DNA of 4,592 bases from a virus. Taxonomy: Duplodnaviria; Heunggongvirae; Uroviricota; Caudoviricetes. The notes under the pieces were generated by a model. The model was not told where the DNA came from, made no database searches, and was given only the letters and a program-made list of their open reading frames with translations. Numbering within the stretch: position 1 is the stretch's first letter; the number at the start of each line of letters is the position of its first letter. Location: IMG/VR virus record IMGVR_UViG_2693429622_000012; one strand, 5' to 3'. Shown here piece after piece: positions 3,868-4,432 of the stretch. The translations under genes were made by a program, and so were the position numbers.

Positions 3868-4172
3868 CATATTTGCAGAGTGCAACGGTTATTAAAGCAT
3901 TCATTCAATACGTTATCTGTATTTGTAGGGCATTCCTGGCTATTTTTGATTGAATTCCAGAATGTTTTATTGAATGGTACTACGTTGTAAATGGTTACAG
4001 GTAGCACTTTGTTATTGAGCATGATGCCTGTGTGAGTCAGTGTAAATATACTTTCAGGAGGTAAGAAAGCATCCGATTGATACCAGATTATTAATTTTAT
4101 TTTACTCCATATGACTGAAAAAGATATTCCGCATGATGGCTGGATAACTGTATCAATCACAATCCACTTCAT
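3837..4172 (-). CDS. Hypothetical protein in an AT-rich island, cargo candidate; may be a chance ORF
   Basis: 111 codons open in visibly AT-rich DNA, where stop codons are frequent by chance. ATG at 4172 is preceded by caaGGAAActaa, a plausible Shine-Dalgarno. No recognisable family; the last ~10 codons are encoded by the 12-bp inverted repeat, which lowers confidence. Confidence 0.3.
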
Positions 4173-4432
4173 TTAGTTTCCTTGTTTATGCCTTGCTGGT
4201 GATGTTCTGAAAAGTATAAATGATATTTTTGAATGTAAACCATAGAGCAGAATTATTTTTCTGATGTTGTTTATTGTTTATTTAAATGCAGGGTGGTTTA
4301 TATCTCGTCTTGTAGTTTATCCATGCATATCTGCTTGATAATCAGGTTTTTATTTAAGGTATGGTTTTGTGTTTTTTCTGTATTACATGTCAGGTATTTT
4401 AAAGAATTATTTTTCAGATGGTGGAAAGAACC

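Follow-up and report, generated by a model that had tools for sequence, protein, structure and literature searches.

The window analysed here, a 4,592-nt stretch of Caudoviricetes DNA (IMG/VR record IMGVR_UViG_2693429622_000012), contains an AT-rich island that lies between the 3' part of a small RNA (sRNA) gene of the STnc100 family and a late gene encoding a DUF1737 protein. The island carries a 111-codon open reading frame (ORF) on the strand opposite to the late genes, which, judged by the matches described below, is iraL, a prophage-carried gene for an anti-adaptor of RssB, in an allele named from Shigella (Table 1). The G+C content is 28-36% across 3801-4400, compared to about 50% on either side, and amounts to 31.9% for 3886-4430 and 32.4% for the complete island (627 bp) versus 50.2% for positions 1-3805. 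Windows of 545 nt that are equally AT-rich make up 0.4% of all such windows and every one of them overlaps the island, the minimum elsewhere being 38.9%. These values bear out the proposal, made earlier from the sequence alone and without database searches (hereafter the sequence-only reading), of an AT-rich island between a hairpin and the next late gene. Of the limits proposed there, 3886-4430, the AT-richness stands, but the left limit does not, as the ORF begins outside it; 3806-4432 fits better. The hairpin had been taken for a tR'-like element next to the second copy of a repeated 'block B'; according to Rfam and a terminator scan, it is actually the terminator of the STnc100-family gene (hairpin at 3781-3802 on the plus strand followed by a T-run; 9-bp stem with 7 GC pairs), and 'block B copy 2' is the 3' part of that gene. 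Homology with Shiga toxin (Stx) phages picks up again at 4433, without the island, and in 73 of 80 IMG/VR loci the stretch 3744-4562 aligns in one piece. On the plus strand, mechanical ORF calling in the island area yielded only two ORFs, of 36 codons (3880-3990) and 67 codons (4293-4496), and no Rfam family was found inside 3806-4432 at E<=1. The several promoter-like motifs which the sequence-only reading saw on the plus strand were not recovered: a sigma-70 consensus scan of 3600-4592 gave two sites, both on the minus strand, compared to a chance expectation of 2.6.

Table 1 Features of the window, with the island and iraL listed before the surrounding elements.
Feature	Position	Strand	Basis or remark
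AT-rich island, read as cargo: iraL and its upstream region	3806-4432		borders: STnc100 terminator and DUF1737 start codon
iraL coding sequence	3837-4172	-	NF007393, PDB 8twd_A, protein identity; S74 allele named from Shigella
IraL C-terminal tail, residues 79-111	3837-3938	-	four invariant cysteines
iraL 5' untranslated region (UTR), 33 nt	4173-4205	-	start mapped at 4205; AAGGA Shine-Dalgarno motif
iraL sigma-70 promoter	4213-4239	-	-10 TATACT (4218-4213); -35 TTTACA (4239-4234); 15-nt spacer; read relative to mapped start
AT-rich region upstream of iraL	4206-4432		better-conserved block 4248-4336, -43 to -131 from start
11-bp inverted repeat CCTTATGGACT, 10 nt, AGTCCATAAGG	3835-3866	-	spans last codons and stop of iraL
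STnc100 (RF02076)/PasD-family sRNA gene, 3' part	3744-3805	+	Rfam partial match 3780-3805; convergent on iraL
DUF1737 late gene (MAFKHYD...), 5' part	4433-4559	+	Pfam DUF1737, E=9.5e-16; cut by IS600 at 4560
IS600, second copy	4560-4592		matches IS600 end; interrupts DUF1737
STnc100 pieces ('block B')	928-994, 2231-2420, 3744-3805		full copy (123.6 bits) and two halves split by 2.7 kb
117-aa ORF	342-695	+	phrog_2873, unknown function, E=4e-70
43-aa DUF3927/TciB-like ORF	731-862	+	phrog_1470, moron category
Duplicated tRNA cluster	1-51, 155-228, 1905-1977, 1988-2061, 2078-2151		related genomes annotate Ile, Arg, Arg
Block of other-lambdoid-prophage type	1007-2598		partial DNA methyltransferase, three tRNAs, full STnc100 at 2231-2420
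Partial IS600 (IS3 family)	2599-3736		about 1138 bp present

The ORF has exactly the coordinates, start and length given by the sequence-only reading (3837-4172 on the minus strand, ATG start, 111 codons plus stop), and the ribosome-binding site considered plausible there is present as AAGGA about 7 nt 5' of the ATG. The statement that the product belongs to no recognisable family, on the other hand, has to be revised. The NCBIfam model NF007393, 'anti-adapter protein IraM', matches the full length of the protein above the curated cutoff (162 bits, cutoff 121; residues 1-110 aligned to positions 1-113 of the 114 in the profile), a PDB sequence search retrieved IraM (8twd_A) with E=6.3e-31 over residues 1-78, and the gene is annotated as IraM in E. 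coli genomes. At the protein level, the product is identical at 110 of 111 residues (99.1%) to WP_000871291.1 of 'clone D i2', compared to 58.6% identity to IraM of E. coli K-12. We take 'clone D i2' to be CFT073-like. Its 5' UTR reads GGAAACCA, as in PMC4045071. IraL was described as a paralogue of IraM in the uropathogenic E. coli (UPEC) strain CFT073 (c1429) and in Shigella (Hryckowian 2014, PMC4045071), with an identity between IraL and IraM of 58.9% (PMC4045071). With 'clone D i2', rather than CFT073 itself, as the reference, the window copy shows the at least 95% identity to CFT073 iraL and the promoter and transcription start of its own by which we delimited the IraL subtype. The gene is already known and experimentally characterised (PMC4045071), so that an antisense-transcribed small protein, one of three alternatives offered by the sequence-only reading, was the correct one; since the ORF is the published iraL, the finding as such is an ordinary one.

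A live hmmscan of the ORF against Pfam-A gave no family even at E<=10, apart from a spurious Nairovirus_NSm match (E=0.056), and another IraM-type family member (P0009) was likewise without a Pfam match, at odds with precomputed tables in which the window protein and its relatives are labelled PF11183:PmrD. In PHROGs, the protein falls into phrog_4407, of 'unknown function'. A phage-oriented annotation would therefore miss iraL, which is identified by NCBIfam and the PDB. A single-sequence protein search yielded 20 clusters of relatives, all named from Escherichia or Shigella; RssC of Salmonella was not reached by that search. One apparent distant relative with 32% identity (locus L011, 5001-5318) was discarded, as it is an iraM pseudogene that carries a frameshift and several stops within the reading frame; in E. 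coli strain ECGI0523, it occupies the place of iraM on the chromosome.

Records identical to the window protein carry the names 'IraM [Shigella sonnei]' and 'MULTISPECIES [Shigella]'; the protein occurs on at least 999 contigs, and its allele, with a serine at position 74, is entered in 4016 index blocks. Complete chromosomes encoding the exact protein are 99.9% identical to positions 1-994 and 100% identical to positions 3744-4592 of the window; one of them, HE616528.1, is presumably S. sonnei 53G. More broadly, the island was found in 1446 of 5426 complete E. coli genomes, with an annotated IraM in each row listed, and in four deposited phage records, and relatives of the protein are encoded in 253 IMG/VR stretches. 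The nucleotide identity of the island to the E. coli copies is 99.1-99.5%. Among enterohaemorrhagic E. coli, iraL is reported to be under-represented. In Escherichia albertii NBRC 107761 (L006, 4464-4796), we observed an iraL with 99% amino acid identity, the same promoter-proximal sequence and a convergent STnc100 gene, which argues that the cassette moves between Escherichia species.

Conservation was assessed on 79 aligned copies of the stretch 3744-4562 (819 nt), which were drawn from IMG/VR, genomes of E. coli, a single genome of E. albertii and one phage record. The 111-codon ORF is intact in all of them, without any coding indel. Thirteen coding sites vary, ten synonymously and three non-synonymously, corresponding to a ratio of non-synonymous to synonymous segregating sites (pN/pS, per site) of 0.08. 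The density of variable sites is 3.9% in the coding sequence, compared to 17.6% upstream of it and 15.4% at the 5' end of the DUF1737 gene. By this pattern of substitutions, selection on iraL is purifying.

The start of the transcript could be placed by means of the published iraL mRNA 5' end, which was determined by rapid amplification of cDNA ends (5'RACE) and reads ACATCACCAGCAAGGCATAAACAAGGAAACCA (PMC4045071). This sequence agrees at 31 of 32 bases with the reverse complement of 4174-4205 and thereby assigns the start to minus-strand position 4205. Sigma-70 -10 and -35 elements are predicted for iraL in PMC4045071, the hexamers being given in a figure only. The promoter that we read relative to the mapped start was missed by the consensus scan because of its 15-nt spacer, as the scan accepts spacers of 16-18 nt. 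Among the 79 copies, position 4235 within the -35 hexamer is C in 62, T in 6 and deleted in 11, so that expression may differ between these alleles; the second iraL copy of strain JJ1886 has a point mutation in the -35 element (PMC4045071). The window carries the commonest base at every variable site of promoter and 5' UTR. Frameshifted or unconserved homologues and a lack of minus-strand transcription had been named by the sequence-only reading as grounds for giving up the ORF; all 79 copies are intact, and transcription of iraL from the minus strand is documented by 5'RACE (PMC4045071) and RNA-seq (PMC12890032).

The region upstream of the coding sequence (4173-4432, 260 nt) has a G+C content of only 29.6% and includes, at 4248-4336, a block with only four variable sites in the alignment. 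Published transcriptomics report that iraL (c1429) mRNA is increased by 1.6 log2 at 37 °C relative to 23 °C and is also increased in a fur mutant. The best match to a Fur box covers 11 of 19 positions and was equalled by 965 of 1000 shuffled sequences; as no Fur box stands out above chance, the effect of Fur on iraL is probably indirect. Silencing of the AT-rich upstream region by H-NS, which is a suggestion of our own, may play a role and would be consistent with the temperature response. At the other end of the gene, the 11-bp inverted repeat over the stop and the codons just before it may give the iraL mRNA a hairpin at its 3' end. No U-tract follows the repeat, and a synonymous polymorphism at stem position 3858 unpairs this position in 38 of the 79 copies; hence, the hairpin is not clearly under selection.

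In order to compare the protein with known structures, an AlphaFold2 (AF2) model was built from an alignment of 13 members of the IraM/IraL family. The mean predicted local distance difference test score (pLDDT) is 63; the first eight blocks of ten residues average 66-79, and residues 83-111 are below 50 and count as unmodelled. The best PDB match of this model in Foldseek is IraM (8twd_A) with a target-normalised template modelling (TM) score of 0.86 and a root mean square deviation of 1.6 Å, followed by the PmrD structures 4hn7, 2rqx and 2jso with target-normalised TM scores of 0.67-0.76. On this model of moderate confidence, residues 1-78 adopt a PmrD-like antiparallel beta-barrel. PmrD has the same small beta-barrel fold, but only 15-18% identity, and lacks the four-cysteine tail. 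Like IraM, PmrD attaches to the receiver domain of a protein of the response-regulator type, its partner being PmrA and not RssB.

The crystal structure of the IraM-RssB complex (8TWD) defines three clusters of contacts (PMC10844676), and the contact residues are conserved in the window protein as expected for a member of the IraM/IraL family. In cluster I, which contacts RssB's N-terminal domain (I4, I6, W22, K26 and I42), all five residues are identical; in cluster II, directed to the C-terminal domain, three of five are identical and the two exchanges, T13S and L75I, are conservative; in cluster III, directed to the linker and helix alpha-8, two of four are identical (H63N, I64V). Cluster I binds the face of the RssB receiver domain that is required by sigma-S (PMC10844676). 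The retention of cluster I together with the drift of clusters II and III fits the published binding of IraL to RssB's N-terminal domain only, for which it offers a structural rationale, and suggests that the main action of IraL is to cover the face of RssB to which sigma-S binds. Four cysteines in the C-terminal tail (C81, C92, C97 and C102, in the arrangement CP-x9-C-x4-C-x4-CP) are invariant in all 13 aligned family members, and may form a metal-binding motif. In IraM, this tail is proteolytically unstable and was removed for crystallisation, and the structure paper mentions neither zinc nor cysteine (PMC10844676).

For IraL, functional data have been published. Deletion of iraL in CFT073 and S. 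sonnei lowers sigma-S in the logarithmic phase. The sigma-S half-life drops from about 5 min to about 2.5 min; the deletion is complemented from the native promoter, and iraL introduced into K-12 raises sigma-S (PMC4045071). Moreover, RssB co-purifies with IraL, and in two-hybrid assays IraL binds RssB's N-terminal domain only (PMC4045071). By analogy, the iraL copy of the window would be expressed as well. According to the proposed mechanism, a sigma-70 promoter belonging to iraL itself would drive its transcription against the direction of the phage late genes, so that the lysogen would make IraL even with the prophage uninduced. The protein, predicted to be a small PmrD-like beta-barrel, would then bind RssB, the adaptor that delivers RpoS (sigma-S) to ClpXP for proteolysis, on its N-terminal receiver domain; once RssB is blocked, RpoS would be degraded more slowly and accumulate in exponential growth, and the general stress response of the host would be stronger. 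Binding to RssB and the slowing of RpoS degradation by ClpXP have been shown for IraL of CFT073 and are extended to the window copy by analogy. We infer, in addition, that Q-dependent late transcription would read antisense through iraL upon induction.

In 19 of 19 iraL loci scanned with Rfam, a convergent STnc100 match lies 25 nt past the iraL stop codon. In intact prophages (loci L001, L003 and L004), the order is Q, tRNA genes, the phrog_2873 ORF, the DUF3927/TciB-like ORF and STnc100 on the plus strand, followed by iraL on the minus strand, DUF1737 or an SASA/nanS-p esterase gene, and the holin gene; in such prophages, window positions 3744-3805 are contiguous with 928-994, and the full STnc100 element scores 132 bits (L003, 5823-6012). 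The late-region position between Q/PR' and the lysis genes, the mapped start of its own, the atypical composition and the absence from Stx phages sharing the flanks are those of a lambdoid-prophage moron; a terminator belonging to iraL itself was not found. In the Stx1 phage BP-4795, stx1AB (2275-3501) is followed by STnc100 (3580-3793), and the stretch between STnc100 and the start of yjhS at 4001 (3794-4000), which matches the iraL island, carries AgvB on the minus strand at 3795-3854. The sequence-only reading had placed the island where stx sits in related phages. It named the right moron region, but the slot is the adjacent one: as seen in the one Stx phage examined in detail, stx1AB lies upstream of STnc100 and the slot of iraL, occupied there by AgvB, downstream.

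AgvB and AsxR thus share with iraL the slot and the orientation, on the minus strand converging on a plus-strand sRNA gene of the STnc100 family, with the moron region on one side and the conserved DUF1737/yjhS gene on the other, and are, like IraL, prophage products that interfere post-transcriptionally with a host regulator. At this equivalent position of lambdoid prophages, convergent pairs of sRNAs have been described, the anti-sRNAs measuring 51-60 nt (Tree 2014, PMC4104026). The AgvB match, however, is an RNA of 60 nt, whereas the island encodes a 111-residue protein acting on proteolysis. A preprint of 2026 links the STnc100 family to PasD and associates it with esterase genes, without mentioning iraM or iraL. 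That iraL occupies the convergent anti-sRNA slot beside STnc100 is unmentioned in the literature on iraL and on the slot covered here and constitutes a small addition.

Taken together, we regard it as very nearly certain that a prophage cargo cassette, or 'moron', makes up the island, and that its gene, iraL, is paralogous to the anti-adaptor gene iraM of K-12. The comparison with CFT073 and S. sonnei IraL shows the same length of 111 residues, the same QQSP tail, 31 of 32 bases of the 5' UTR start sequence, and the same STnc100 and DUF1737 neighbours, with the commonest bases at the variable sites of the promoter hexamers; the window copy differs from the CFT073-like protein by L74S only and from its locus by the IS600-broken prophage. 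A number of observations weigh against this interpretation: the functional data come from CFT073 and S. sonnei strains; S74 adjoins contact position 75, and the published S. sonnei deletion strain may carry another allele; the prophage around iraL is decayed, with an IS600 cutting DUF1737 and runs of N at 995-1006 and 3737-3743; the live Pfam scan finds no family despite the precomputed PmrD labels; and neither a terminator scan nor a fold of 3744-3880 gave a convincing iraL terminator on the minus strand, the hairpins there being without a U-tract.

The gene could also be an orthologue of K-12 iraM in its regulation, that is, controlled by PhoP/PhoQ and induced by Mg2+ starvation instead of being constitutively expressed like IraL. 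K-12 IraM (YcgW), an RssB anti-adaptor of this kind, belongs to the same NCBIfam family, shares the fold, the cluster I residues and the four cysteines, and lends its name to the window gene in annotations by the Prokaryotic Genome Annotation Pipeline (PGAP); in addition, a PhoP-box-like direct repeat, TGTTTAttgttTATTTA, is found with one mismatch at 4268-4285 (-63 to -80), inside the better-conserved upstream block. At least one such match, however, arises in 62 of 200 shuffled sequences (31%), i.e. at chance level, and the nucleotide homology to K-12 iraM covers only 4040-4178 and does not extend beyond 6 nt upstream of the ATG; the promoter regions of the two genes are therefore unrelated. 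The protein is 99% identical to IraL versus 58.6% to IraM, with four extra C-terminal residues compared to the latter, and IraL raises sigma-S in the unstressed logarithmic phase from its own promoter (PMC4045071), which together make PhoP control of this copy very unlikely. Even less credit is due to the idea that the window copy is an inactive relic in a decaying prophage, weakened by L74S. The truncation of DUF1737 by IS600, the second partial IS600 upstream, the existence of frameshifted iraM pseudogenes elsewhere (L011) and the serine at position 74, where the 12 other aligned family members have the hydrophobic L or I, are what one would expect of a relic; yet the S74 allele is intact and very common (4016 index blocks, at least 999 contigs), promoter and 5' UTR carry the commonest bases, the gene is under purifying selection, and deletion of iraL in S. 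sonnei lowers sigma-S (PMC4045071). As for a non-coding RNA of the AgvB/AsxR type, or regulatory DNA, as the main product of the island with the ORF being incidental, the homologous slot of BP-4795 with its minus-strand AgvB and the convergent sRNA pairs described for this position in lambdoid prophages (Tree 2014, PMC4104026) provide a precedent, and for 3744-3880 the RNA of the minus strand has a strong predicted fold (z = -5.7). This folding, however, is mostly due to the antisense of the STnc100 terminator region and not to the island, the covariance models of AgvB (RF02702) and AsxR (RF02703) gave no match in the 19 iraL loci at the gathering score or in the window at E<=1, and in the ORF, which is free of indels, synonymous changes strongly outweigh the others, so that we attach next to no probability to this explanation.

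With regard to the chromosomal location of the paralogue, RefSeq puts K-12 iraM (L002, 4681-5004) 268 bp outside the annotated right end of the cryptic prophage e14, beyond the icdC remnant, where it adjoins the prophage-type DUF1398 gene ycgX; iraM has been stated to be 'on e14' (PMC4045071).

In the chromosomes with the exact protein and in E. coli prophages, window positions 994 and 3744 would be expected 55 nt apart inside the STnc100 gene, and the 2.7-kb block in between (1007-3736) is absent from these chromosomes and prophages, with the runs of N located exactly at its two junctions. This block probably reflects repeats across which a scaffold was joined, rather than a real insertion. 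Full-length IS600 measures about 1264 bp. The question of the N-runs leaves the island unaffected, since 3744-4592 runs without a break and agrees fully with complete genomes, the IS600 junction included, and the same DUF1737/IS600 junction occurs in complete chromosomes (L092-L101); because IS600 interrupts DUF1737, the prophage is defective, while iraL is still intact. Compared with the single cluster of the reference loci, the two sets of tRNA genes, each of which stems from another prophage background, show 88-92% identity. A second AT-rich stretch, with 35% G+C in the 200-nt windows at 201-500, holds the ORFs of 117 and 43 aa as two further small cargo ORFs.

The findings also allow a more speculative proposal, namely that the site between the STnc100 terminator and the start of DUF1737/nanS-p is exchangeable among hijackers of host regulators, AgvB and AsxR in prophages of enterohaemorrhagic E. 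coli (EHEC) and Stx type and iraL in prophages of UPEC and Shigella, combined with an induction-linked shut-off of IraL and a sensor in the cysteine tail. As iraL faces the late operon, Q-antiterminated transcription, perhaps with read-through into STnc100 antisense, would switch IraL off upon induction, and the cysteine tail could bind metal or sense the redox state and in this way tune the stability of the anti-adaptor. We consider this full proposal unlikely.

An AT-rich ORF in the late region of a prophage, on the strand opposite to its neighbours, was thus rightly flagged as cargo. What the analysis adds to the published iraL is small: the equivalence with the anti-sRNA slot, the pattern of RssB contacts and the invariant four-cysteine tail. 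The known phenotype conferred by iraL is a higher amount of RpoS in growing cells of UPEC and Shigella, and, if the exchangeable-site proposal were true, this stabilisation of RpoS would be tied to the lysogenic state.

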